A DNA stretch of 64,000 nucleotides from Candidatus Nanoarchaeia archaeon (lineage in GTDB: Archaea > Nanobdellota > Nanobdellia > Woesearchaeales > WJIZ01): the NCBI GenBank assembly GCA_028279765.1, contig JANQND010000007.1:5851-69850 (forward strand), given 5' to 3'. The notes beneath the pieces were generated by a model. That model did no database searches. It was not told the origin of the DNA and saw only the letters and a list, made by a program, of their open reading frames with translations. Made by a program: the position numbers and the translations under genes. This document shows positions 1,436-41,122 of this stretch, piece by piece (position 1 is the stretch's first letter; the number at the start of each line of letters is the position of its first letter).

Positions 1436-2473
1436 TCAAAACGAAATACTATCAAGCACATCATGCGCATCAACGCTCGAAAGCAAATAGGATAACCGCT
1501 CTTTATTCTTAACCTTTGAGAGCAGCAGCGCACGTGCATATTCCTCATCCTTCTTGCTTATTCGGGCAAAGGAGTCTGCCGCAAGCAGAGGGTAAGGGTA
1601 GCCAAAGAAGAGCGGATCAGAGGAATACGAAGAGAGTATACGCACGTAGTCCTGCAGTTTTTCCTTGCATGCAGAATCAATTTCAAGCCGGAAAACGTGC
1701 TTTGAAGAAGAATGGAGTCGAACAAAGCACATCTCACCCAAATAATACTCGTTAGACACCTCAAAAACCGGATAATACAACCAACTGGATTTCGGGCCTC
1801 TGTCCTGCAGTGCGCTGCTAAGTCCTGATGCACTGCGCGTAAGCAAGCGGCAGGTTTTGCTCAAGAATCCGACCATCATCTCTTTTTTGCGGGCTGCATC
1901 AAGCAGGTCTTTGAGGACATTATATTCTTCCTTTGTTTTTGCTTTAATGCTTCCATCTATCGCAACCATAAGGCTATCGCTTTCCTCCACTATTCTCTTT
2001 GCATAGAGTAGCTCTGCGCGCCGTCTGATCATCCCTGCAATGTGCTCCATCTCAGTACTATACCTCTCACCATCAAGCGTAATGGTTTGTGAATCAAAAC
2101 CAAGAGGCTCGCTGAAAGGTGCATCACCAAAGAAGGATACAGTATAGTGCAGCACACCGTTATTCTCTTTAGCCTCAATAAAACAAATGAATTCACTGAC
2201 TGACTGAAGTGCTCTTTGCTTTTGTTGGTAGGAAACTGCTGCAATGCGCATAAAATGAAGAGAGAAATTCGGACCGGACAAAATCTGGGCATTGCCTCCA
2301 TCGATCGCAAGCAATGGTTTTTCTTCTCCAAAAAGGCTCAGTTCATGAAAGTTTTTGCTATCAATCCTTATACCGGAAAAGCCTTTGTCAGAAGAAAACG
2401 GAAGAAGGTCTGTTTCTTTATTGATAAACTCATCAAAAGATCGCAGCAATTGTTCTGCATCAGAGGATTTCAT
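1436..2473 (-). CDS. NurA-like nuclease domain protein (tentative)
   Basis: 345-aa ORF with LAIDGGNA and VAIDGSIKA motifs reminiscent of the NurA fold. Weak assignment by eye only. Confidence 0.35.
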   Translation of the reverse strand: MKSSDAEQLLRSFDEFINKETDLLPFSSDKGFSGIRIDSKNFHELSLFGEEKPLLAIDGGNAQILSGPNFSLHFMRIAAVSYQQKQRALQSVSEFICFIEAKENNGVLHYTVSFFGDAPFSEPLGFDSQTITLDGERYSTEMEHIAGMIRRRAELLYAKRIVEESDSLMVAIDGSIKAKTKEEYNVLKDLLDAARKKEMMVGFLSKTCRLLTRSASGLSSALQDRGPKSSWLYYPVFEVSNEYYLGEMCFVRLHSSSKHVFRLEIDSACKEKLQDYVRILSSYSSDPLFFGYPYPLLAADSFARISKKDEEYARALLLSKVKNKERLSYLLSSVDAHDVLDSISF

Positions 2474-2545
2474 AACAATAGAATACCAAAGAGGCTTTTA
2501 TAATTTGTGAGTTGGGTGACAGAGACATAATGAATCCCTAGAGAA

Positions 2546-2630
2546 GCAACAACAATGGCGCAGACGAACTTAGTATCTAAGTTCGAGATTTTCGAAAGAA
2601 AATCGTTCTGCCTGCCGTTATTGTTGTTGC
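2546..2630 (+). repeat. Copy 1 of an ~85-nt palindromic element (small ncRNA, MITE-like element or upstream regulatory element)
   Basis: Termini GCAACAACAA / TTGTTGTTGC pair. Two internal hairpins: CGAACTTAG-TAT-CTAAGTTCG and GATTTTC-GAAA-GAAAATC. Shares the 14-mer AACAACAATGGCGC and AAAATCGTT..CTGCC.TTATTGTT with the copy at 11220-11302. Confidence 0.5.
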
Positions 2631-2665
2631 AAATCTCAAAAACTACAAATAACAATCAAAAATCC

Positions 2666-2677
2666 AAACCTTTAAAT
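2666..2677 (+). promoter_or_regulatory. BRE/TATA-like box (AAACCTTTAAAT) for nadC
   Basis: TTTAAAT lies 26 nt upstream of the ATG at 2703. The same AAACCTTTWWAA motif recurs upstream of topA, the pilus operons and 34121. Confidence 0.45.
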
Positions 2678-2702
2678 TGTTATCCCGGCTCTAAAAAATG
2701 CT

Positions 2703-3641
2703 ATGAATCGCAGGAAAGTTCTCCTCAAAGCGTTCTCACGTGAAAAGCTTCTGACGTTGCACTCACCCTTTTACAGGTCCTGGGTAGAGCGTTTCATCAT
2801 TGATGAAACCAAGGCAGACTTAGGAACAAAGGGAGATATCACTACAAATGCAATTCTCAACGGAAAGAAGCATGCCCGCGCGCAGGTAGTCGGCAGAGAG
2901 CCGGGGATCGCTGCAGGAATCGAAGAGGCATCACATTTATACAGGAAGAATGGCCTGCAGGTAAAACAAATCAAAAAAGACGGGCAGAGAATAAAAAAAG
3001 GGGATATCCTATTAGAGTTGCAGGGAGAGAAAAAAGCCCTCTTTCGTATTGAGCGCTCTGCAGTAGATATTCTGCAGAGGATGTCAGGAATAGCAACCCT
3101 TACTGCTCAGGTTTTCAGATCTATTAATTATAAAGTGCCTATCGCACCTACCAGAAAAACACAGTGGCGCTATCTGGACAAAAAAGCAGTATCCCTGGGT
3201 GGAGGGCTCACACATCGATTAGCGCTCTGGGAGGCAATCCTTATTAAGGATAATCATCTCAAAATGCTCAAAAGCGAAGGGGAAAAAGATCCTATCAGAA
3301 CAGCAATGCAGAGGGCGCATGCCTATAAAAAAAAATCAACATTCATTGAAATTGAAGTAACGACCCTAAGGCAGGCATGCCGTGCTGCGGCAATGTTCAA
3401 AGAGATGAACAGCAGTGTTCCGTCACTCATTATGCTCGATAATATGACGCCAGCGCAGATCAACAAAACGATCAAAGAGCTCAAGAAAAACAAGCTTTAC
3501 GATTATGCCCTTCTGGAAGCATCCGGCGGAATCAATCCGAAAAACATAAAAAAGTATGCCCGGACAAAAGTAGATGTTATCTCCATGGGATACTTGACAC
3601 ACTCTGCCCATGCGCTTGATATAAAGCAATATATTCTGTAA
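2703..3641 (+). CDS. nadC: Nicotinate-nucleotide pyrophosphorylase (quinolinate phosphoribosyltransferase)
   Basis: PTRKTQWRYLDKKAVSLGGGLTHRLALWEAILIKDNH block is typical of the NadC family. Adjacent to nadB. Confidence 0.9.
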   Translation: MNRRKVLLKAFSREKLLTLHSPFYRSWVERFIIDETKADLGTKGDITTNAILNGKKHARAQVVGREPGIAAGIEEASHLYRKNGLQVKQIKKDGQRIKKGDILLELQGEKKALFRIERSAVDILQRMSGIATLTAQVFRSINYKVPIAPTRKTQWRYLDKKAVSLGGGLTHRLALWEAILIKDNHLKMLKSEGEKDPIRTAMQRAHAYKKKSTFIEIEVTTLRQACRAAAMFKEMNSSVPSLIMLDNMTPAQINKTIKELKKNKLYDYALLEASGGINPKNIKKYARTKVDVISMGYLTHSAHALDIKQYIL

Positions 3642-3644
3642 AAA

Positions 3645-5198
3645 ATGAAAACAGATATCGTGATAATAGGGTCAGGAATAGCGGGCCTTACGGCAGCACT
3701 CAAGGCTGTGCGGTTTTCTAAGGTGACGCTGATTGCTAAGGAAAAGCTGCAGGAATCCAATACGTACTATGCCCAGGGAGGTCTTGCAGCAGCAATAGGG
3801 CACGATGACAATATCGAAACCCATATCCAGGACACCTTGCGCGCAGGCGATGGCATCTCAGAGAGAATGCAGGCAAAGATTCTTGCTACGGAATCAGCAA
3901 AGCGTATCCAGGAGTTAAAGGAGCTTGGTGTGCGCTTCGATACAAGAGGGAAAAAGTACAGGCTCAGCAGAGAAGCGGTGCATTCTCGGGCGCGTATCAT
4001 CCATGCATCCGACATGACCGGAAAGGAAATACAACTGCAGTTAGTAAAGAAAGCTCGTGAGAATCAGAATATCACGATTCTTGAGTATCATATGGGATTG
4101 GACTTGATCGTGCATAAAAAGAAATGCGTTGGTGTGCAGGTTCTTGACCTGAAAACAGAAAATACTTTCAGTGTCTTTGCCAAGAAAACAGTTTTAGCGA
4201 CAGGTGGGCTGGGAAGATTATATAGCAAAACAACCAACCCGCACATAGCGACCGGTGATGGGATCGCGATGGCCTTTCGTGCAGGAGCGCAGTTGCAGGA
4301 CATGGAATTCGTTCAGTTTCATCCCACCATGCTGCATAACTCAGAGCCTTCCTTTCTGATATCAGAGACCCTGCGCGGCGAAGGAGGAATCCTCAAGAAT
4401 AAACACGGCAAGGCCTATATGGGAAAGTATCACCGTGATGGCGAGCTTGCTCCTCGTGACGTAGTAGCAAAATTCTCTGTCATTGAAATGCAAAAAACAA
4501 ATGCAAAGCATACCTTTCTGGACATGACGCATATTGAAGAAGCATACCTGAAAAAAAGGTTTCCCCATATCTACAAAGAGTGCCTCAAGTATGGTATTGA
4601 TATGGCAAAACAAATGATCCCGGTGAGTCCTGCTGCGCATTATGTTTGCGGTGGTATAAAAACCGATAGTTTTGGCCAGGCCTCAGTAAAGAATCTCTAT
4701 GCTATCGGCGAGTGTGCCTGCACCGGGTTGCACGGTGCTGATAGGTTAGCATCAAACTCCATGACCGAAGGGCTGGTGTATGGGACGCGCCTTGCAGAGA
4801 AGATCAGAAAAGAAGTGAAAAAAGAAAAAGTGCTGGGAAAGGAAACGGAGGATAGGCTGATTACGTCTGTTCGCAATGGCCGCGTCGAAAAAATAAAGAA
4901 ATTGCTCCAGGGTATTATGTGGCAGCAGGTAGGGATTATTCGCTCGAAAAAAGGCCTTGTTGCTGCATTAGGAAAAATCAAAAAGCTTGAAGCTAAGTTG
5001 AAGAAATTAGTAAAAGAGAGTACCAACAAGGAAGTGCAGGAGTTAAAGAATATGCTTTTGCTGGGCAAGATCATTATTATTAATGCCCTTCGCAGAAAAG
5101 AATCCCGTGGAACGCATTTCATTCTCGATTATCCCGAGCGGCACGATAATATCTGGAAGACCCATTTGGTTATTGATAAAAAATATAGGGGATTGTGA
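3645..5198 (+). CDS. nadB: L-aspartate oxidase
   Basis: N-terminal FAD fold DIVIIGSGIAGLTAAL, plus YAQGG, RGEGG, GGIKTD and LYAIGECACTGLHGADRLASNS motifs. Confidence 0.92.
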   Translation: MKTDIVIIGSGIAGLTAALKAVRFSKVTLIAKEKLQESNTYYAQGGLAAAIGHDDNIETHIQDTLRAGDGISERMQAKILATESAKRIQELKELGVRFDTRGKKYRLSREAVHSRARIIHASDMTGKEIQLQLVKKARENQNITILEYHMGLDLIVHKKKCVGVQVLDLKTENTFSVFAKKTVLATGGLGRLYSKTTNPHIATGDGIAMAFRAGAQLQDMEFVQFHPTMLHNSEPSFLISETLRGEGGILKNKHGKAYMGKYHRDGELAPRDVVAKFSVIEMQKTNAKHTFLDMTHIEEAYLKKRFPHIYKECLKYGIDMAKQMIPVSPAAHYVCGGIKTDSFGQASVKNLYAIGECACTGLHGADRLASNSMTEGLVYGTRLAEKIRKEVKKEKVLGKETEDRLITSVRNGRVEKIKKLLQGIMWQQVGIIRSKKGLVAALGKIKKLEAKLKKLVKESTNKEVQELKNMLLLGKIIIINALRRKESRGTHFILDYPERHDNIWKTHLVIDKKYRGL

Positions 5199-5262
5199 TT
5201 ATTTTTTGGCCTATTATTTTCTATATAGAAAGAAATTAAAGAAAAAAAAGAGATAATTAAAA

Positions 5263-6105
5263 AAATGTGAGAGCAGTAGTCGCGTTTTACTTACTCTCAC
5301 ACCCCATATTTCTGGCGGTTTGGTAGTGGTTGACACCCATAGTAGATACAAAACCAACCTAATTAGCCTTAATCCAACTATAACCGCCATCAATGGAGAA
5401 ATATGTGATAACAGAATGTTATCACAACCGGTGTGCAATCAAAAAGTGTCCTAAGGCAGCAGCGAGGCAAGAATGCTGTGCCTTAGGACTGTTACCGGTG
5501 AGCTTTGCGGTAGTTGCGGTTGCAGTGGCGTCACCGGTAAAGGAGAAGGAAATCTATTGTGAGGCTCGGCAAAGACTAGAGGAAACCTCTTCGGGAAACG
5601 TCGATGCCGAGCGTATAACCAAAAATAAATGTGAGAGCAGTGATAAAGCGTTGAAATTCAATGAATACGTACTCTCACATCCCATGTCCGAGAAACAAAG
5701 ACAACATTCGCAATAAGTTGACTTTGAGCCGATTTTCGGTTAAATCTTGCAGACATGGAAGAAATGAAAAATAAACTCAACGCATACAGGGGAAGGAGTT
5801 AACAAATACCGTATGCACTAAGCTTATACCCTAAAATAAGAGTGTAGGACAAAAGCCCTACACCCCCCTGATAGCATCAGATACATTCTGAGCGAAAACC
5901 GTTGGATGCTATCAGTGTGTTGTTCTGTTCGATCAAAAAAATGATACCGGGAGATCCCGAAGGATAACCAGGTATCATAAAAAAACCCGGGCACCGAATA
6001 ACGGCGTGATTCCCGGGAGGAAGTGGAGTATCAAAGTAAAGGTGCCCGGTAAACAAGAAGATGAAATATGAGGTTTCTAAATTTCCAGTTAAAACCGGGC
6101 ATGTG
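5263..6105. ncRNA. Hairpin-dense ORF-free block A (candidate structured RNA, strand unresolved)
   Basis: Serial helices at 5266-5301, 5314-5388, 5405-5425, 5448-5489 (11 bp), 5492-5540 (10 bp) and 5565-5611. Further helices at 5630-5679, 5782-5816, 5842-5863, 5868-5915 (11 bp), 5941-5978 and 5985-6050. Confidence 0.4.
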
Positions 6106-7188
6106 TTAATCATTGACATCAATGATGACTTTCAGGCTCATCTCACCATTCTCATCGATATGGTTGTAAGCATCAAGATATTGGTCAAAGGTGAATCGGT
6201 CCGTGATTAATGGATCACAAAGAACTTTCCCTTCAGAGATTAGCCCAACCGCATTTTCGTAGTCTTCGTGTTTATACATCAAGGTACCGATCAGGGTCAG
6301 TTCACGATCCTGCAGGCCAGCCAAGTCAACAACAGGTGGCTGGGTAAAACAGCCAACGATAATGATTTCGCTTCCTTTGTTGATATTCGCAACGATACCA
6401 TTAAGTGCAATCTGTACAGCAGAGCATTCGAATGCCAGATCAAAGCCATCATTGCCAAATACGCGTTTAATTGCATCTGGGAGTTTCTCAGTTTTGGGAT
6501 TGCTAACAAAGTCAATCTTACATTCGGTAGCCTTTTCCAGGCGAAAATCGCTGATATCAGTGATTAAAACCTTTTTAGCCCCGTTGGCTTTGGCAACCTG
6601 AGCTACGAGGTTACCAATAGGACCGGCACCAGTTACTAGAACATTTTTTCCTTTTACCTCAGTTGCACGGCTCATAGTATGAACCGCAACCGAGACAGGC
6701 TCAACCAAAGTTCCTTGATCATGGGTGAAATTATCTGGGAAAGTAATTACATTTGACTCATCGGTAACAAAATAATCCTGAGCAACACCTGGCGCCTGGA
6801 ATCCTTCGACTTTCAGTTCATTACAAATATGATAGTCATCTCGTTTGCAAGGAGGACATTCACCACAAACAATTTGTGGTCGGGCAATTGCTTTTTTACC
6901 AAGTATAGCCGCGGGTACACCATCACCAGTCTCAACGATTTCTGCAGAGTATTCATGGCCCTGAATGAGAGGGTACATCTCCGGCGGAACAGTTGCGTGT
7001 GTGCCGTGGTTAACATGGATATCAGAGCCGCATACACCAATTTTTTTGATGTGTAGTAAAACTTGGCCACGGCCAGGTCGCGGCACTTTTTCTTCTGAGA
7101 ATTCAATGTTATCAGAATTCTGTGGTTTTGGGCAAATCATTGTTGCCCGTTTCATTGTTTCTGGTATGTCAGTTATACTCGTGTTCAT
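6106..7188 (-). CDS. Zn-dependent medium-chain alcohol/polyol dehydrogenase (sorbitol/threonine dehydrogenase-like)
   Basis: GVCGSDIHV, GHEYSAEIVETG, CGECPPCKRDDYHIC and VLVTGAGPIGN motifs. Shine-Dalgarno AGAGAGGA lies 5 nt upstream of the ATG. All 10 Arg codons are CGN, unlike the neighbouring genes. Confidence 0.9.
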   Translation of the reverse strand: MNTSITDIPETMKRATMICPKPQNSDNIEFSEEKVPRPGRGQVLLHIKKIGVCGSDIHVNHGTHATVPPEMYPLIQGHEYSAEIVETGDGVPAAILGKKAIARPQIVCGECPPCKRDDYHICNELKVEGFQAPGVAQDYFVTDESNVITFPDNFTHDQGTLVEPVSVAVHTMSRATEVKGKNVLVTGAGPIGNLVAQVAKANGAKKVLITDISDFRLEKATECKIDFVSNPKTEKLPDAIKRVFGNDGFDLAFECSAVQIALNGIVANINKGSEIIIVGCFTQPPVVDLAGLQDRELTLIGTLMYKHEDYENAVGLISEGKVLCDPLITDRFTFDQYLDAYNHIDENGEMSLKVIIDVND

Positions 7189-7283
7189 AATATCCTCTCT
7201 TTCTTAGTTAAAATATTTACTAATTAGTTATAACAATAGAAATTACACCAAAAAAAAACAAAAAACAATTTGATTCAAAATAT

Positions 7284-9449
7284 AATGATAGCCACTAGCA
7301 TCAATAGGGACGCTAGCAGCTATCAAAGAAAAGTGTGGGGATGGAGTATCAATAATACGTACCCAGTTGGACGTGGTGGTCGGGAAATTAGATTCCACGT
7401 CAACCGGGTACAGGGTTCCCTAGAAAATAAAGTCCCGGCCCGGTACTCTTCTCAGGAGACCTAGAGTTAAGCACCGAGCCTTGTGGACCGGTCGAGCAGG
7501 TGGTAGTTGCCAAGGAAGAGTACTGATAAAAATTAAAAGGCACCATGAGCAAAAGCTGCATGGCACCTTGAGAAGTGGGCATCTAAATAAAGACTTGGAC
7601 CCTAATGGTATAGAGTCCAAGCCAGCAAATGGACGCCTGCTAAAAATAGCAGGTGTCTAGGTAACAAAAATTGCAAGCACCAAGCGTAGCCCCACAGCAG
7701 TACCTGGTGCTTGCTAAGGCGAATATATATATATAACTCGCCGCGAAAGCAAGATGAAAGTTATAAAACGTAAGCCCACGGATGTGAGCTTACGCAAGTC
7801 AGGGGAGGACACTTTCTTAATAATAATATAGGAAAGTTCCTCAGTCTTTTCCAGCAAAGTCTGAAACAGACCTGCTGGCAGGGACATAGTAAGGGTGAGC
7901 ACTTAGCATACACCTTGCAGCGATACCAAGTGCTCAGACCGTGTAAAGGACTAAACAAAAGCCGAACCCCCATTGCGCATCACACTATTATGCGTCACGA
8001 CCAGTTCGGCTATCCAGAGAACTAAAATTAAAGCCTACCTGAACAAAAATTGCTCAGGTAAGCCATGTTTCCACATTGTCAGGTGCTCGCCGCAGCACTC
8101 TGACATGCAGAGAAGCATATCAAAATGAATATGCCAGCGGTCCCTGTCGGTCAGGGAATAAAAATGAATGCAGAGAACACGCTGGCGGTTGGTATCAGAT
8201 AGTGACCGTCTTTTAATTTTCCCTTCATCCAACTATCTGATGGGGGCAAGTTTACACTATCCTTTTGAAACAGACTAGCGGGTGGTCCCAGTCAACCTGC
8301 CCGCTAATCTTCAGGAAGTGGAGTATCTAAGTAATGTAAAATGCTGCGCTAAGTTTCCCTAGATGGATTCCTTTCCGGCTTAGCGCACACATCCACGACA
8401 AGAAATTTCAAATGAAGACCTGGCAGATAAATGTGGCGAGATATCTGCCAGGTGGAGGCGACTTGCGATATCTCCGAGATATCGCGCTCTAAATAAATCC
8501 ATATAGTAAACCATTATAATACTCAGCAACGCTGAACTCGCAAGTAGCCCAGCGCTGTGAGGAGTCATATTTCTATGACTCAGTTCTAATGGGGATTCCA
8601 GGATAATTAATTACCGGAAGCTGTCAGCAGAACCAAGTAACCCGTAAGCGATGAGCGCTAACGTACTGACAGCCCCCGGCATTGTTCCGACCGGCATCCG
8701 TGCCAGGCAAAGGCAGGATGTGTCCGCAGTCATCCAACCGGCCAGTAGCATCCATGAAGGAAAGATATCATATGTAATAAAGCGCCCTACAGTCTCTTCA
8801 ATGGTGTACTTTCGGGCGCTGACCTAAGCGTTCGAAGGATCAAAAAGCCGAATTGAAAAAAGTATCGGTACTTGTATGGCTTTGATCCTTCTTAACTCAG
8901 GTCTGAAAAGAAAAGTAATAATCATGAAGTAAAAATCAATATAAGCAAGGCAGACAGCAGAAACGGTCCATACTAATGTTTCAGTGCTGGCTGCCTGACC
9001 TTGCTTCCTCTTTAGGACATTTAAAAAACAGTGCCCTAGCTGCTTAAGGGATTAAAGGATGGTCTCTAAGCTGTGAAAAGAGTTATCGAGATATCTTCGG
9101 TCTTGGGAGTGAAATGAATATATGTACAGCTAAGAGACCAATAAGGGTGTAAATACCCGAACGTGGAATGCATAATATGATAGCAAAACACACCCCATAT
9201 CCGAAGACACAGGGTGTGGGACCTGTTTGCGCATCGCTTTTGTAATGAAAATGTGTAAAGGATACGCATCATCCCCGGGCCCTCCCATTGGTTATTCTTT
9301 TTCTCTCTTCCTTTTGGTCTTCTCCGTAGAAAAAAGGACTGCTATCCGCAGATAGCAGTCCAAGGTAAGCTTTCGATATAAATCGAAAACAACGGTTAAT
9401 AACTAAACTTTAACATCACCTACTAACCGAACGCGATGGTTTAGGTGAT
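7284..9449. ncRNA. Hairpin-dense ORF-free block B (candidate very large structured RNA or RNA array, strand unresolved)
   Basis: About 30 consecutive, mutually unrelated stem-loops with 7-14 bp stems and purine-rich linkers. Coordinates are listed in the findings. No ORF longer than about 70 codons. Confidence 0.45.
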
Positions 9450-9992
9450 TTGCATGGCCGGTGCTGTGGCATAAATCACTTTTGCTACGATGGTATTTTG
9501 AGTAAGAATTTTCTCAGCTCGAAAGACCGCAAAGGTACCACCGGAATCAACAACCAGACTATAAATGGAGTTAACCTTTAATACACCGTCAGTTAATGTA
9601 AAATTCAGCAACGGTGTAGCCCATTGTTGACTTTCCGGCATCGCTGCCAAAACAGAATCATCTTCACTCGTAATTGCCATAACTTCAGCAATTTGCGCGT
9701 TTCCAATTTTTTCGACGTTTTCTACTAACGCGCCAACATCAATTGTCTTCAAATTTTCGATCAAAGTCTGGATACCGTCCTGTGTCGTCTTCTTTATGAC
9801 ACTTTTCCCGGTGGTATCCATCGCATTCGTTACTACGCCAACTTCAGGCACCTTTAGCTTTGCCTCAGGGGAAGTGGCTTCATTTTGTGCTAACATACTT
9901 GTGCCGATTTCATCCTGCGCAGTAGCACCTTGCGACAGCGGCACCAGCCCAATGACAAAGCAAAGGGAGATAAATAATTGTAACTTTTTCAT
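9441..9992 (-). CDS. Secreted protein of unknown function
   Basis: ORF 9441..10100 trimmed to MKKLQLFISLCFVIGLVPLSQGATAQ (Sec-type signal peptide). GGAG lies 6 nt upstream of this ATG. CGA Arg codon. Hairpin 9415-9449 overlaps the stop codon. Confidence 0.6.
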   Translation of the reverse strand: MKKLQLFISLCFVIGLVPLSQGATAQDEIGTSMLAQNEATSPEAKLKVPEVGVVTNAMDTTGKSVIKKTTQDGIQTLIENLKTIDVGALVENVEKIGNAQIAEVMAITSEDDSVLAAMPESQQWATPLLNFTLTDGVLKVNSIYSLVVDSGGTFAVFRAEKILTQNTIVAKVIYATAPAMQIT

Positions 9993-11219
9993 TGTTAACT
10001 CCATTCTGAATGAAATTAATAAATTGATACAACAACACCAAGAGGTGTTGTACGACATGTTTTTCTCACCATCCGTAGAAATAACAACGCTGCTGATCAA
10101 AGATGAAAAAGAGACTATTCAATTGTAATATGGATGATTTCTCTTAATTGTCTTGCCGATGTCTCCCTTCTTAAATTGGAGCGGCTCTTGACAAAGATTT
10201 GTCAAGTGTCGAAAAGAAACATCCTAGCACTTTATTTTGTGAGCGGCTCATCCAGCCTTCGTCTGGTTCATTGACCCTCGAACCTAGGGAAGAAACACAA
10301 ATTGTCAGAAACGCTCTATTGCAGTCTCCGCTGCGTAAGTGTCCGTTTCTTATGGACATGACTAGCAGATTACATGGCATTTTTTTACCACAACATGATT
10401 ACGTAAGTATCCGTTTTAGGAGCATCAGAAGCTCTTTTACGTATCCTCACGGAGGACTAGGGTTGTGTGAGGCACTTTACACACAGACACGCTTTACTGT
10501 AAGAGGGCTACTTCATCATCTCCAAGGAAACTTGCTTTAAGTTCCCTAAAATCATTTTCCGGTTATCGCATATTTATGCAACCACAAAAAGGCAGGTAGG
10601 CTTTCCCGAAGTTTTAAACAACGTTCGGCCCGATCGAAGAATAACCATTGGCATTTCTCCTTTTGTTAAAGTATCAGACTTCATAAAATTACTGAGGTTT
10701 ATGAGGTAAAAAACATTTACATCATAGGCAAATCCTCCCATCAAATAATAGAATAGTACTGAATCCAGGTTCTTTCACATTGAAATTTCCTGAATTCCCG
10801 ATTATAACCAAGATCACTTATAGCAAAAGCTAAAGAAAAAAGCTTTTCTTACCGAAAATATGCATCCAATTCTGCATATTTCTTGCCTTTCCAACCGTAA
10901 TGTGCTATAATTCTCTCAGTGCGGAAAATCTTGGTAGCAATTGGTTTTTAGGTTGTCAGACGTTCAACAATCCAAAGAACAAACTCTTCGTTTCGAGTGT
11001 TTGTTTTTGAAATGTTGCAGCTAAAAGCTGTGGTGTCGAACCGATGGGCTCAACGAAATGGTTAGGTAAAAAACATGAGGTGTGATATAATTTTGGGATA
11101 ACTTTTGAACAATAATGAACATTTGATTACTAACCTAATTGCCTTTTCATTTTTAAACTTTACTCAGAAAAAAAGGCCTAATTTCACGACCGCACAGCAA
11201 CGACAAAAGCGAAATATTT

Positions 11220-11302
11220 GGAACAACAATGGCGCGAACAGAGTGTCTCATTCCGAATTTTTGCTTTACAAAAATCGTTTCGTCTGCCATTATTGTTACA
11301 AC
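11220..11302 (+). repeat. Copy 2 of the ~85-nt palindromic element
   Basis: GGAACAACAATGGCGC ... CGAATTTTTG-CTTTA-CAAAAATCG ... TCTGCCATTATTGTTACAAC. It ends 71 nt before the topA ATG; copy 1 ends 73 nt before the nadC ATG. Confidence 0.5.
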
Positions 11303-11337
11303 TCTATTTCAGATTCTTCTCTATCCATATAAATCAC

Positions 11338-11349
11338 AAACCTTTTTAA
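11338..11349 (+). promoter_or_regulatory. BRE/TATA-like box (AAACCTTTTTAA) for topA
   Basis: Located 24 nt upstream of the ATG at 11373. No Shine-Dalgarno site, consistent with a leaderless transcript. Confidence 0.45.
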
Positions 11350-11372
11350 CCCCTCTTTGACCCGCAAACAGT

Positions 11373-13592
11373 ATGACAGAATTAATTGTCACTGAAAAAC
11401 CTGCCGCTGCAAAGAAAATAGCCGAATCACTAGCAGACGGAAAAGCCATCAAAGAAAACATCAATGGTGTTCCGCACTACCAGCTCTCCCATGGCAATCA
11501 GGACATCATTGTTACCTGCGCAGTAGGCCATTTGTACGGTTTAGAGCAAAAAGAAGGAAAAAAGTGGACCTATCCCCTCTTTGACATAGAGTGGAAGCCG
11601 TCGTACGAAACAAAAAAACAATCCGCCTTCACCAAAAAATACCTTGCAGCAATAAAAAAACTTGCAAAACAGGCAAATGAGTTCACTGTTGCAACAGATT
11701 ATGATATAGAAGGGGAAGTCATCGGATTAAATGTCATCAGATACGCCTGCAAGCAAAAAGATGCCCAGAGGATGAAATTCTCCACTCTCACCAAAGATGA
11801 CCTCATAAAAGCCTACAAAAACAAATCTAAAACCCTGGACTGGGGACAGGCCAATGCAGGGGAAACAAGGCATTTCTTAGACTGGTATAATGGCATCAAT
11901 TATAGCAGGGCGCTCACCGCAGCCATCAAATCCACCGGCGCCTTCAAGATCATGTCCGTGGGAAGAGTGCAGGGCCCGGCATTAAAAACCATCGTGGAGC
12001 GGGAAAAAGAAATCCGGGCCTTCAAGCCTGAGCCCTACTGGCAGATTGAACTCACCGGAAAAATAAAAGAAGGAGCGATACAGGCCTGGCATAGCAAAGA
12101 TAAATTCTGGGATAAAGCTGAAGCAGAGGAAGTTCTTGAAAAAACAAAAGGGGAAAAACAAGGTGAAGTAACAAAAGTATCCACCTCTACTTTCAAGCAG
12201 GCACCTCCCACACCCTTTGATCTTACGACACTGCAAACCGAAGCATACCGCTGCCACAAGATTGCTCCGAAAAATACCTTAGAGATAGCTCAGGAACTCT
12301 ATAGTTCAAGCTATATCTCATATCCAAGAACATCATCACAACAGTATCCTGAAAGTATCGGGTATGCAAAAATTCTTGATAGCCTCAAAAATAATTCCGC
12401 CTACAGCACGCTGGCGCAGGACATTCTCAAGAAAAATCCTCTCAAGCCAAACAACGGTAAAAAAACCGATCCTGCACATCCCGCTATCTATCCGACAGGC
12501 ATCAAGCCAATGAACCTCAACTCCTACGAAGAAAAACTCTACGATCTCATCGTCAGAAGGTTCCTGGCAACTTTCGCAGACTACGCAAAGCGGGAAACCA
12601 ATAAGATAGAAATCAATGTCAAAGGCGAGCCCTTCATCGCAAAAGGAACCAGAACAACAGAAAAAGGCTGGCACACCTATTATGGGCCCTACGTCAATTT
12701 AGAAGAAGAAGAGCTTCCAAAAGTAAAAGAAAAGGACAGCGTAGGCATAAAAAAGATAGCCAAGCATGACAAAGAAACCCAGCCGCCGAAGCGATATACT
12801 CCTGCATCAATCATTAAGGAGTTGGAAAAACGAAACCTGGGAACAAAAGCAACCCGTGCATCCATCATCGAGACTCTCTTCAACAGAGGATATATTGATG
12901 GAAAAGCAATCCAGGCAACAGAGCTGGGCATACGCACAACTGAAACACTGGAAAAGCACTCACCAAAGATCATTGACGAGAAGCTCACCGGCCATTTCGA
13001 AGAGCAAATGGAAGAAATACGAAAAGGGAAAAAAACAGAAGAGGAAGTGCTCAGTGAGGCAAAAGAGGCTCTCACAAAAATATTAGCAGATTTCAAGGAA
13101 AAAGAAAAAGAAATTGGAAAAGAGCTGCACACAGCAAACATCGAAACACGCGATGCCATGACCACTATTGGCAGCTGTCCGAAATGCGCTGAAGGCTCCC
13201 TGCAGATACGAAAAGGAAAATTCGGGCAATTTGTTGCCTGCAACAAATACCCCGACTGTAAGACTACGTTCTCACTGCCAGGCAATGCGCTCATCAAGCC
13301 TGCAAAACAGGTATGTGAGCAATGCAACATCCCTATGGTGCTCACCATCAAAAAAGGAAAGCGGCCAACAGCATTCTGTATCAATAAGGACTGCAAATCA
13401 AAAATAGTAGAAAACGAAAAAGCCCAGCAAGAAGCAAATGAGCTCATCGGAACAGAATGCCCTGATTGTAAAAAAGGAAAAATTGCACTCAGAACATCCA
13501 TCTATGGGTCTTTTCTGGGCTGCGACAAATATCCAAAGTGCAAATACACGAAACAGTTAACACAGCAAAAAGAGGAAACAGAGAGCCAATGA
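11373..13592 (+). CDS. topA: DNA topoisomerase I (type IA) with C-terminal zinc ribbons
   Basis: Toprim segments ELIVTEKP and DYDIEGE, active-site segment YISYPRTSSQ, and repeated CPKC/CxxC zinc-ribbon modules at the C-terminus. Confidence 0.95.
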   Translation: MTELIVTEKPAAAKKIAESLADGKAIKENINGVPHYQLSHGNQDIIVTCAVGHLYGLEQKEGKKWTYPLFDIEWKPSYETKKQSAFTKKYLAAIKKLAKQANEFTVATDYDIEGEVIGLNVIRYACKQKDAQRMKFSTLTKDDLIKAYKNKSKTLDWGQANAGETRHFLDWYNGINYSRALTAAIKSTGAFKIMSVGRVQGPALKTIVEREKEIRAFKPEPYWQIELTGKIKEGAIQAWHSKDKFWDKAEAEEVLEKTKGEKQGEVTKVSTSTFKQAPPTPFDLTTLQTEAYRCHKIAPKNTLEIAQELYSSSYISYPRTSSQQYPESIGYAKILDSLKNNSAYSTLAQDILKKNPLKPNNGKKTDPAHPAIYPTGIKPMNLNSYEEKLYDLIVRRFLATFADYAKRETNKIEINVKGEPFIAKGTRTTEKGWHTYYGPYVNLEEEELPKVKEKDSVGIKKIAKHDKETQPPKRYTPASIIKELEKRNLGTKATRASIIETLFNRGYIDGKAIQATELGIRTTETLEKHSPKIIDEKLTGHFEEQMEEIRKGKKTEEEVLSEAKEALTKILADFKEKEKEIGKELHTANIETRDAMTTIGSCPKCAEGSLQIRKGKFGQFVACNKYPDCKTTFSLPGNALIKPAKQVCEQCNIPMVLTIKKGKRPTAFCINKDCKSKIVENEKAQQEANELIGTECPDCKKGKIALRTSIYGSFLGCDKYPKCKYTKQLTQQKEETESQ

Positions 13593-39539: not shown

Positions 39540-40241
39540 ATGAAAGCAATAATTCTGGTTGGAGGGGAAGGGACAAGACTGCGTCCATTGACTCACAAAA
39601 TACCGAAAGCACTAGTCCCCATTAGAGATAAGACACTCACGGAACATGTATTTGATATCCTAAGAAAGTTCAGGGTAAAAGAAATCATCCTCAGTGTCGC
39701 ATACAAAAAAGAAATGGTAAGGGAGAAATTTGGAGAGGGCAAAGATCTCGGCCTTGAAATATCATATGTAGAAGAGCCCAGCCCGCTCGGAACTGCAGGG
39801 CCGCTCATTATTCTTAATCAGCAAAACAGTCCTCTGACAGAGACTTTCTTTATGATCAATGGCGATAATCTCTTTGATCTTGATCTTAAAGAGATGCTGG
39901 AGTTCCACAAAAGAAATAATGCGGCCGCAACCATCGCCCTTTCCAGGGTTGAAGATCCACGAAGTTTTGGGGTTGCAGTCATGGAAGATGATAAGATCAC
40001 CGAGTTTGTCGAAAAACCGCAAGTTCCTCCTAGCAATTATATTAACTCAGGGTATTATATTATGGAACCAGAAGTCTTTGAAATCATTAAAGGCAAAGAG
40101 AAAGCAATGATAGAAAAAGACATCTTTCCTGTACTCGCAGAGCAGGGAAAGCTCTTTGGATACAGATCAGATAATCTCTGGTTCGATACGGGGACACCTG
40201 AGCGCTATGATCAAGTTAAAAAAGAATGGAAGTTATCATAA
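39540..40241 (+). CDS. Sugar-1-phosphate nucleotidyltransferase
   Basis: MKAIILVGGEGTRLRPLT N-terminus after trimming ORF 39456... The upstream ATG at 39456 sits 25 nt after a TATA-like box, so the start is not fully settled. Confidence 0.85.
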   Translation: MKAIILVGGEGTRLRPLTHKIPKALVPIRDKTLTEHVFDILRKFRVKEIILSVAYKKEMVREKFGEGKDLGLEISYVEEPSPLGTAGPLIILNQQNSPLTETFFMINGDNLFDLDLKEMLEFHKRNNAAATIALSRVEDPRSFGVAVMEDDKITEFVEKPQVPPSNYINSGYYIMEPEVFEIIKGKEKAMIEKDIFPVLAEQGKLFGYRSDNLWFDTGTPERYDQVKKEWKLS

Positions 40242-40546
40242 AAGGAGAGCAGGAAACAATAAGCGCACAAAAAAGAATATCAGTTCTTGGAAAAGCGCTT
40301 GGTTTAATGTTTTCACCAAGAAAAAATCTTCTGTTTGTATTTTCACAGGAGCAAAGAATTTCTTTGCATATGCTCTTTGTGTTTTTCCCTATTTGGGCAC
40401 TATTTGTTGATGAAGAAAAAAGAGTTGTTCATATTCAGAAACTTCTTCCCTTTCTCTCGCTGTGCTATCCAAAATGTAAAGCAAAGTTTATTATAGAAGC
40501 ATACAAGAAACCAAACATAAAAATGAACGAAAAACTGAGGTGGTAA
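40226..40546 (+). CDS. DUF192-like small protein
   Basis: GLMF...ISLHMLFVFFPIWALFVD pattern resembles COG1430/DUF192. Weak call. Confidence 0.45.
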   Translation: MEVIIKGEQETISAQKRISVLGKALGLMFSPRKNLLFVFSQEQRISLHMLFVFFPIWALFVDEEKRVVHIQKLLPFLSLCYPKCKAKFIIEAYKKPNIKMNEKLRW

Positions 40547-41002: not shown

Positions 41003-41122
41003 GGGGGCGTAGTATAATCTGGCTAGTACAGCCGGCTCCAGATGTTGGAGCGTTGAGGCAAGAGCCGATGATAAGCACGCAGGCAAAACCGGCCGATCGG
41101 GGTTCAAATCCCTGCGTCCCCA
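41003..41122 (+). tRNA. tRNA-Trp (CCA) with a 46-nt intron at the canonical 37/38 position
   Basis: Acceptor stem GGGGGCG/CGTCCCC, D-arm GTAT..GTAC, anticodon stem GCCGG/CCGGC with loop CTCCAG/A, and T-arm CGGGG-TTCAAAT-CCCTG. Intron spans 41042-41087. No encoded CCA. Confidence 0.85.

Follow-up and report, generated by a model that had tools for sequence, protein, structure and literature searches.

REP/BIME and other bacterial UTR hairpin elements are imperfect palindromes that follow one another in transcribed intergenic DNA, in many cases where two genes converge, with imperfections that are compatible with G.U pairing on the transcribed strand; they form genome-wide families with a consensus and act in termination and in exonuclease protection. 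Bacterial intrinsic terminators consist of a GC-rich stem, a UUCG or UGCG loop and a U-rich tail, and occur singly or in pairs. For archaeal RNA polymerase, T runs are termination signals, and oligo-T suffices without a hairpin. Among non-coding RNAs, CsrB/CsrC and RsmX/Y/Z (100–350 nt) are strings of local stem-loops with repeated GGA loops and without a global fold, and OLE, GOLLD, ROOL, HEARO and raiA (200–800 nt) combine a long ORF-free sequence with strong folding, wide conservation, long-range helices supported by covariation, and Rfam models. Integron attC sites and CALIN arrays are hairpins that are defined by structure, diverse in sequence and strand-specific, with R''/R' cores (RYYYAAC and GTTRRRY) that pair at the base of a 55–140-nt hairpin and one site per cassette, and they lie near horizontally acquired genes, a complete integron also having the tyrosine recombinase IntI nearby; integrons and attC arrays reportedly occur in Archaea, DPANN included, as routes for bacterial genes. 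A literature search on hairpin arrays or on DPANN non-coding RNA returned nothing relevant to the locus described here.

The DNA analysed, a stretch of 64 kb referred to as the window, belongs to a Woesearchaeota archaeon (DPANN). In four syntenic Woesearchaeota relatives (L030, L031, L032 and the P0126 contig) nadB and topA are adjacent, approximately 40–95 nt apart, and the entire segment that separates them in the window is absent. This insert has a coding share of only about 27%, and its components follow one another in the order given below.

3645–5198, plus strand: nadB, left neighbour of the insert, convergent with the ADH gene
5199–11372, no strand: lineage-specific insert of 6.17 kb that separates nadB from topA
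5199–6105, minus strand (probable): hairpin array 1, about 14–16 stem-loops, between the convergent nadB and ADH
6106–7188, minus strand: Zn-dependent alcohol dehydrogenase (ADH), with Pfam domains ADH_N and ADH_zinc_N
7189–7285, minus strand: AT-rich spacer without strong hairpins, with T6 and T9 runs and then a TATA-like sequence upstream of ADH
7286–9335, minus strand (probable): hairpin array 2, with 38 top-level helical domains, of which 32 have 8 bp or more
9441–9995, minus strand: orphan ORF (184 aa) whose N-terminus carries a signal-peptide-like segment
9996–11372, no strand: 1.4 kb of non-coding DNA of unremarkable structure, part of the same insert
11373–13592, plus strand: topA, right neighbour of the insert

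A different insert, of 6.1 kb, is found at the same junction in locus L033, and this comparison of gene order indicates that the nadB–topA junction is a hotspot of insertion or recombination. The ends of the island carry neither terminal inverted nor terminal direct repeats, and neither the island ORFs nor six-frame domain scans yielded an integrase or transposase, whether as a gene or as a remnant. The ADH gene is probably of bacterial origin, judging from its relatives: the closest homologue in a search of genome collections (75% identical) comes from a Sedimentisphaerales MAG, and the remaining homologues among the matches listed are at most 61% identical, those with an organism name being bacterial. 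The Sedimentisphaerales ADH locus is not syntenic with the island, has no non-coding DNA homologous to it and lacks a hairpin-dense stretch, having only single terminators. The orphan ORF has no Pfam match and no homologue besides itself among 5.8 billion cluster representatives, and its AlphaFold2 model (pLDDT 34) is unusable. A database that draws on about 15 billion sequences contained no protein at least 90% identical to either island gene; searches of phage and plasmid collections with blastn were negative, and viral contigs contained neither island protein. In the 1.4-kb segment at 9996–11372 the MFE z-scores are about 0 except at 10800–11100, and neither a six-frame Pfam scan nor Rfam gave a significant match.

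The earlier note on this DNA had described 7284–9449 as about 30 serial, mutually unrelated stem-loops, and as a candidate for one very large structured RNA. The analysis confirms the hairpins, whose density far exceeds chance. About 32 stable hairpins lie in 7286–9361, and nearly all the helices listed at the time were recovered to within 0–3 nt (among them 7286–7325, 7359–7411, 7443–7523, 7537–7569, 7594–7621, 7632–7657, 7673–7714, 8033–8063, 8194–8241, 8418–8453, 8465–8485, 8612–8681, 8834–8891, 9060–9140, 9189–9218 and 9336–9361); 9415–9449 was not, and 9393–9429 was found instead. Shuffled controls were among the checks that the note had named: perfect Watson-Crick inverted repeats that reach 8 bp or more (loops of 3–60 nt allowed) number 13 in 7284–9449 as against 1.32 ± 1.16 in dinucleotide shuffles (maximum 5 in 100), and 5 of at least 10 bp are present as against 0.08, while two coding controls contain 0 and 1 at the 8-bp threshold. 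Array 1, which lies outside the stretch described in the note and was absent from it, is as significant as array 2, with 10 such repeats of at least 8 bp versus 0.58 in shuffles. In scans of 150–200 nt, MFE z-scores range from -3.5 to -8 across 7200–8700 and 9300–9450 and from -3.7 to -7.4 in array 1, and the other approximately 400 scanned segments of the 64 kb are centred on 0. A GC-corrected scan of energy density in 800-nt stretches, covering about 650 kb (33 other loci plus the window), places 7281–8080 as the most extreme of all (-14.65, for a distribution with an sd of 1.58), array 1 second and 8401–9200 fourth; an outlier in locus L002 was judged to be a regression artefact (GC-rich coding DNA without an Rfam match). 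The extreme hairpin density is thus limited to the island, where about 45 hairpins occupy 3.1 kb in two arrays. Their spacing is irregular (36–127 nt) and their stems have 10–21 bp when G.U pairs are counted, many being perfect over 10–17 bp; about 58% of the bases of array 2 are paired, and its minus-strand linkers are U-rich.

The note was also right in taking the region as non-coding and as lacking the signatures of known RNAs. The segment 7286–9361 is ORF-free (longest open stretch at most 91 codons, with no single stop-codon reassignment opening the region) and has no protein-family match in a six-frame Pfam scan. Rfam 15, whose models include rRNA, RNase P, tmRNA, group I and group II introns, OLE, GOLLD and ROOL, returned at the gathering threshold only a tRNA, at 41003–41122, for the whole window, and permissive scans of 6900–9800, 5100–6200 and 9400–11400 gave sub-threshold chance matches (mir-878, SNORA21, RybB and ctRNA, E 0.2–2). 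Of these, the weak RybB-like match lies at the ADH terminators, where it reflects a generic shape of seed plus terminator (E=0.22, below the gathering score). GGA occurs in loops at chance level on both the plus strand (6/63, 6.7 expected) and the minus strand (3/63, 3.7 expected), and a Csr/Rsm-type sponge was rejected for this lack of enrichment. A regular-expression search of both strands for attC cores (RYYYAAC...GTTRRRY) found two loci in 64 kb, with poor R''/R' complementarity, neither of which bounds a hairpin.

The idea of one very large structured RNA was not supported by folding. Minus-strand pairs that span at most 100 nt contribute 93% (-397 of -425 kcal/mol) and 91% (-311 of -340 kcal/mol) of the global MFE, and since more than 90% of the energy is local, the layout is that of independent hairpins, like beads on a string. 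Long-range pairing exceeds that of module-permuted controls by only about 7–9 kcal/mol (z about -3.7 and -2.2), and long-range helices closing multi-helix domains were not seen in the minus-strand folding. The hairpins were said to share no sequence with one another, which is correct in that there is no family-wide consensus; the exceptions are one duplicated hairpin and a 22-nt motif that occurs twice.

5259–5307, minus strand: duplicated hairpin, copy 1 (TGTGAGAGCAGT..ACTCTCACAYCCCAT), found by self-comparison
5623–5685, minus strand: duplicated hairpin, copy 2, with stems and flanks identical to copy 1 and different loops
6018–6039, minus strand: 22-nt motif, copy 1 (AGGAAGTGGAGTATC[A/T]AAGTAA in plus-strand reading), in the loop closed by the stem CCGGGCACC/GGTGCCCGG
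8313–8334, minus strand: 22-nt motif, copy 2, 21/22 identical to copy 1, in the internal loop of a 99-nt hairpin (8246–8344)

The two copies of the motif (2 matches as against 0 expected in shuffles) bracket ADH and 1.1 kb of array 2, their flanks are unrelated, and degenerate copies are present at 7337–7358 and 7570–7592. Further copies of the motif or of the duplicated hairpin were found neither elsewhere in the window nor in the 33 fetched loci, a motif profile search included, and the motif was likewise absent from viral contigs; an exact 20-mer of it has one chance match in metagenome contigs, which falls within a coding region of a gene cluster of the ars type (arsenic-resistance-like). 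Candidate 364-nt units, when aligned, revealed no internal paralogy beyond these short elements, and neither did the flanks of the motif; the hairpin arms have only chance-level matches, of at most 16 nt, elsewhere in the window or in the 33 loci. A CRISPR array was discarded, given the irregular spacing and the lack of regular near-identical direct repeats in self-comparison, as was a REP/BIME, MITE or similar repeat family, given the lack of a shared consensus.

Certain hairpins lie directly behind the island genes and have the appearance of terminators.

5941–5978, minus strand: terminator-type hairpin 3' of the ADH stop codon; its loop is cUUCGg and a T7 run follows
5987–6018, minus strand: terminator-type hairpin 3' of the ADH stop codon, followed by T7
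9336–9361, minus strand: terminator hairpin of the orphan ORF, 11 bp, with a UGCG loop, followed by T6

The last of these had been counted as part of the RNA body and is instead the terminator hairpin of the upstream minus-strand ORF. Between 5000 and 11500, the minus strand has 11 of the 12 terminator-like matches, and stems there reach 17 pairs; in the 58 kb of the host outside the island such matches are at chance level and nearly all short-stemmed. In about 11 of the 31 hairpins of array 2, the 8 nt that follow on the minus strand include 5 or more T, many of the T runs of this strand sit within loops, and most hairpins are remote from any gene end. Read in the minus sense, both arrays finish in similar AT-rich boxes of T8–T9, and part of the spacer (7229–7263) resembles 5222–5256 at the matching end of array 1, a weak, low-complexity similarity (71% over 35 nt). 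No convincing promoter for the arrays was found.

The transcribed strand, which had been left open, is probably the minus strand, on which both island genes are also read. The imperfections of the stems are RNA-like, as had been suggested: symmetric internal-loop oppositions, counted only where flanked by at least 3 Watson-Crick pairs, comprise 13 A:C versus 2 G:T in the arrays and 26 versus 18 in a coding control, and tandem wobbles of the form 5'-UG/3'-GU appear on the minus strand in 7325–7286 and 7569–7537, two of the places where they had been pointed out. When G.U pairs are allowed, 29 of 50 hairpins are stabler on the minus strand and 12 of 50 on the plus strand (p=0.0007), with a minus-strand gain of 2.7 kcal/mol per hairpin, whereas neither strand has an energy advantage when only Watson-Crick pairs count; array 2 alone gives 24 hairpins for the minus strand and 7 of 31 for the plus strand. 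In addition, across 7200–8000 the minus strand has the lower MFE z-scores, U-rich tails follow hairpins on this strand, and its tetraloops include cUUCGg (twice), UGCG, GAAA and GCAA, that is, members of the UNCG and GNRA classes. The earlier argument for the plus strand from its A-rich linkers stands: in plus-strand reading, unpaired positions are 39–45% A and 8–11% C, and this A-rich, C-poor composition, by analogy with classical structured RNAs, argues for the plus strand. Furthermore, the excess of A:C could come in part from strand-biased transitions and not from selection on RNA pairing.

A possible reading, and the one that we tentatively prefer, is that the arrays are RNA hairpins of a UTR-type or insulating kind, read from the minus strand and carried on a horizontally acquired island. 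What the analysis shows is the structure with its statistics, the island setting and the bias in strand; that the arrays are transcribed, and that they terminate, insulate or stabilise, is inferred. The hairpins would fold during transcription, array 2 in RNA that reads through from the orphan ORF and array 1 in RNA that reads through from ADH, and there stem-loops and U tracts would stop or stall RNA polymerase and the hairpins would block exonucleases. The foreign genes would in this way be insulated from each other, and antisense transcription would be kept out of the convergent and essential nadB; the 22-nt motif in the loops may be a separate binding or seed element. Against an insulating role, 45 hairpins over 3.1 kb far exceed the needs of known terminators or insulators, and in DPANN genomes, which are small, 3.1 kb of hairpin DNA would be costly. 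Moreover, strong terminators stand right after each gene, so most of the arrays should see little transcription, T-rich tails are present on only about a third of the minus-strand hairpins, and 7 of the 31 hairpins of array 2 favour the plus strand.

It is doubtful, although worth weighing, that the arrays encode genuine long non-coding RNAs, one or two in number (about 0.9 and 2.1 kb), which serve as a beads-on-a-string scaffold, sponge or decoy for proteins that bind helices or AU-rich linkers; in essence this is the proposal of the note minus a globular fold. The extreme folding signal, the wobble bias and stable tetraloops (which suggest selection at the RNA level), the small but real excess of long-range pairing, the exposure of the conserved 22-nt motif in loops and the A-rich, C-poor unpaired positions of the plus strand are all consistent with such RNAs; proteins of this kind would, on the other hand, have no common loop or linker motif to recognise, GGA being at chance, and no convincing promoter or close homologue turned up (the latter in searches of proteins, phages, plasmids and motifs). 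The strand favoured by the wobbles also contains 12 runs of T5–T9, which, as archaeal termination signals, argue against a single 2-kb transcript. The retention of 3.1 kb of non-coding DNA in a lineage whose loci are otherwise tightly packed speaks for function, but the same island keeps 1.4 kb of featureless DNA, so retention alone is not evidence of it. That featureless DNA, together with the orphan ORF and the low coding share, fits a reading in which the arrays have no function in this host, being either imports from a bacterial, plasmid or viral donor, in which they were terminators, UTR elements or something else, or palindromes grown at the DNA level by template switching that perfects quasi-palindromes, which persist since the insertion is recent. 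The insert is lineage-specific and sits at an insertion hotspot, its hairpins resemble bacterial intrinsic terminators in their UUCG loops and U tails and are unlike the rest of the host's 58 kb, and non-wobble mismatches are common in the stems, at 18 of the 33 symmetric-loop oppositions; nevertheless, this reading too is rather unlikely, for the wobble asymmetry implies some period of selection on pairing, many stems are perfect over lengths that long neutral decay would not be expected to leave, a donor bearing arrays of this kind is not known (the Sedimentisphaerales locus having single terminators only), and DPANN genomes usually purge useless DNA. We regard as unlikely, in turn, an undescribed kind of archaeal or mobile-element RNA, of kilobase scale and made of dozens of individually selected, unrelated hairpins that travel with transferred genes in DPANN, for which a structural decoy or scaffold and a new type of cassette boundary are possible roles.

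Recombination or mobile sites, in the form of an attC-like cassette array (CALIN), a nest of MITE or REP elements, or att cores at the 22-nt direct repeats, are very unlikely. It is true that attC sites are conserved in structure and not in sequence, that a bacterial-type gene is embedded among the hairpins, that the 22-nt copies have unrelated flanks in the manner of attL/attR and that one hairpin is duplicated; however, no RYYYAAC...GTTRRRY pair flanks any hairpin, the hairpins, one every 40–100 nt, are far denser than one per cassette, six-frame scans contain no integrase or transposase, and there is neither a family-wide consensus nor a terminal repeat at the island ends. That the arrays are decayed or recoded protein-coding sequence is barely credible: the several ORFs of 60–70 codons on both strands are about the number expected by chance, the six-frame Pfam scan of all three non-coding parts is empty at E<=1, a single stop reassignment opens at most 219 codons in 2.25 kb, and decay would not generate dense inverted repeats.

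Three kilobases of near-solid RNA-type hairpins are conspicuous here because DPANN genomes are tiny and tightly packed. If functional, the arrays would illustrate how bacterial genes come to be domesticated or insulated in a reduced archaeal genome, or might represent a new kind of modular long non-coding RNA; if imported junk, they would mark a recent cross-domain transfer at the nadB–topA hotspot and point to a donor whose RNA biology is unusual. Whichever holds, the locus offers a clean test bed: a pair of arrays, a pair of genes, relatives in which the empty site is known, and a clear prediction of the strand.

Compared with the systems described at the outset, the arrays share with Csr/Rsm RNAs the beads-on-a-string arrangement, but they are about ten times longer and have no common loop motif. 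With OLE, GOLLD, ROOL, HEARO and raiA they have in common long ORF-free regions and a strong folding signal; unlike those RNAs they have no Rfam match and almost entirely local folding energy, no homologue of them turned up in the protein, phage, plasmid and motif searches, and they lack the nested domains with long-range closing helices that are seen in rRNA or group II introns. Like attC sites and CALIN, they consist of structured, sequence-diverse hairpins with a strand preference near horizontally acquired genes, although R''/R' cores and an integrase are missing and the spacing is denser. The hairpins after ADH and the orphan ORF resemble intrinsic terminators, which do not, however, come by the dozen, and only about a third of the array hairpins have T-rich tails. 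The seed-plus-terminator layout of 3'UTR-derived sRNAs is resembled by the 22-nt motif followed by a terminator hairpin, where the weak RybB-like match is located. As regards REP/BIME and related UTR elements, the arrays are likewise runs of imperfect palindromes with G.U-compatible imperfections, one of them between convergent genes, and they would share the roles in termination and exonuclease protection; they differ in that their approximately 45 hairpins have nothing in common beyond one duplicate, and in that they are larger (0.9 and 2.1 kb), belong to a DPANN host and are restricted to an acquired island.

The density of hairpins at 7284-9449, an interval which the earlier note had read by eye as a candidate very large structured RNA, is real. 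Nearly all of the helices listed there were regained by local folding, and the region between the two flanking minus-strand genes (7189-9440) contains no ORF of more than about 90 codons. Counted over 7284-9449, perfect Watson-Crick inverted repeats with stems of 8 bp or more number 13, against 1.3 +/- 1.2 in dinucleotide shuffles and 0 and 1 in two coding controls; for those of at least 10 bp the counts are 5 and 0.08 (shuffles). The MFE z-scores run from -3.5 to -8 over 7200-8700 and 9300-9450, while the remainder of the 64-kb window is centred on zero, and in a GC-corrected energy scan of the window and approximately 650 kb of other prokaryotic DNA the stretch 7281-8080 ranks first among 800-nt stretches, more than 9 sd out. 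Isolated stretches with z of about -5 are also found at 2551-2700 (+), in the divergent NurA/nadC intergenic region, and at 40051-40350 (+), at the 3' end of an NTP-transferase gene. A second array, absent from the earlier note, is ORF-free and as significant as the first; the alcohol dehydrogenase (ADH) gene is flanked by the two arrays. The features of the region are as follows.

5199-6105: array 1, hairpin-dense, in the gap between nadB and ADH, which are convergent; two of its hairpins are canonical terminators followed by T7
5259-5307 and 5623-5685: duplicated hairpin, stems identical, TGTGAGAG.../...CTCTCACA
6018-6039 and 8313-8334: 22-nt direct repeat, AGGAAGTGGAGTATC[A/T]AAGTAA, 21/22 positions identical
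6106-7188, minus strand: Zn-dependent ADH gene
7286-9335: array 2, hairpin-dense
9441-9995, minus strand: orphan ORF of 184 aa, N-terminus signal-peptide-like
9996-11372: featureless non-coding DNA of 1.4 kb, no ORF

The notion of a single giant RNA fares less well, and a molecule folded as a whole is probably not what these arrays encode. Most of the minus-strand energy is local (-397/-425 and -311/-340 kcal/mol with spans of at most 100 nt), and long-range pairing gains only 7-9 kcal/mol over module-permuted controls. Runs of T5-T9 terminate the archaeal polymerase; the favoured minus strand carries twelve of them, some of which lie in loops. Read in the minus sense, both arrays finish with a T8-T9 run, set in AT-rich boxes that resemble each other (family D1), and canonical terminators (a hairpin followed by T6/T7) stand after both island genes.

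The strand that would be transcribed, which had been left unresolved, is probably the minus strand. When only Watson-Crick pairs are counted, the strands of 50 hairpins are equal (mean difference -0.04 kcal/mol, p=0.75), but when G.U is allowed the minus strand is the more stable in 29 and the plus strand in 12 (p=0.0007), with a mean gain of 2.7 kcal/mol per hairpin; in array 2 alone, 24 hairpins prefer minus and 7 plus. Among symmetric internal loops flanked by at least three Watson-Crick pairs, A:C oppositions outnumber G:T by 13 to 2 (26 to 18 in the coding control), an excess that could stem partly from strand-biased transitions. The tandem CA/CA loops pointed out previously belong to these A:C oppositions and on the minus strand become the favourable 5'-UG/3'-GU, thus giving uninterrupted helices of 13-21 bp. 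The minus strand also holds the tetraloops cUUCGg (twice), UGCG, GAAA and GCAA, 11 of 12 terminator-like matches, the more negative z-scores over 7200-8000 and the sense of both island genes. Against a minus-strand transcript stand the seven array-2 hairpins that prefer plus and the unpaired composition of the plus-strand reading (A 39-45%, G 21-24%, U 23-29%, C 8-11%), since classical structured RNAs are typically A-rich and C-poor at such positions.

The copies of the duplicated hairpin have conserved flanks and different loops, with T-rich tails behind them on the minus strand. The two strong copies of the 22-nt motif, each in the loop of a larger hairpin and with unrelated flanks, bracket the ADH gene and 1.1 kb of array 2, and weaker, degenerate copies are found at 7337-7358 and 7570-7592. 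The motif could be a seed or binding element, or form att-like cores.

Both arrays lie on an island. Four Woesearchaeota relatives share the gene order PfkB-NurA-(NadA)-NadC-NadB-TopA-Lon-PLD, with a nadB-topA gap of about 40-95 nt and no insert, and in the window 6.17 kb is inserted there (5199-11372), comprising array 1, the Zn-ADH gene, array 2, the orphan ORF and the featureless DNA. At this junction a fifth relative (locus L033, 634-6806) has a 6.1-kb insert that differs from this one and encodes radical SAM, TrmB and Cys/Met PLP enzymes, which makes the junction a hotspot of insertion within this lineage of Woesearchaeota. In the relatives topA has a conserved promoter box, AATTCCAAACTTTTTTATAT, which is absent upstream of topA in the window. 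As for nadA, it stands between NurA and nadC in L030, L032 and the P0126 contig, and not at that place in the window (1436-3641) or in L031.

That the organism is a DPANN archaeon is borne out by the TopA protein, which shares 65-74% identity with its counterparts in Woesearchaeota and Nanoarchaeota, by AglB/STT3, NurA and an archaeal-type secretion ATPase encoded in the window, and by an intron-bearing tRNA at 41003-41122 (+). This tRNA is missed by ARAGORN in bacterial mode; its Rfam match is 120 nt long and spans all 71 positions of the model, so that an intron of approximately 49 nt is implied, and by eye it looks like a tRNA of archaeal type, possibly Trp-CCA. The nearest homologue of the Zn-ADH is from a Sedimentisphaerales bacterium (75% identity; at most 61% for the other homologues listed). 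The orphan ORF has no homologue among 5.8 billion protein clusters, and AlphaFold2 gave no usable model of it (pLDDT 34). The 1.4 kb of non-coding DNA shows no Pfam remnant, Rfam match or unusual folding, which is out of the ordinary in a DPANN genome.

The arrays match no Rfam family, and they are not an attC array, a repeat family or CRISPR array, a Csr-type sponge, or decayed or recoded coding sequence. The searchable collections hold no close relatives of this lineage, and the metagenome scan was by exact 20-mer match alone. That the hairpins serve as recombination sites is improbable; the island has neither terminal repeats at its ends nor a recombinase. Terminator-like hairpins outside it occur at chance frequency and are nearly all short-stemmed, so the long hairpins are foreign to the usual style of this genome. 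Functionless DNA, imported or generated by mutation, is a minority possibility, and a real long non-coding RNA built as beads on a string is given the same modest weight; both come close in support to a UTR-type reading, by which the size of the arrays is hard to justify. Tentatively, we prefer to regard the arrays as UTR-type hairpin strings, working at the RNA level on an acquired island, whose role would lie in termination, insulation or the protection of transcripts.
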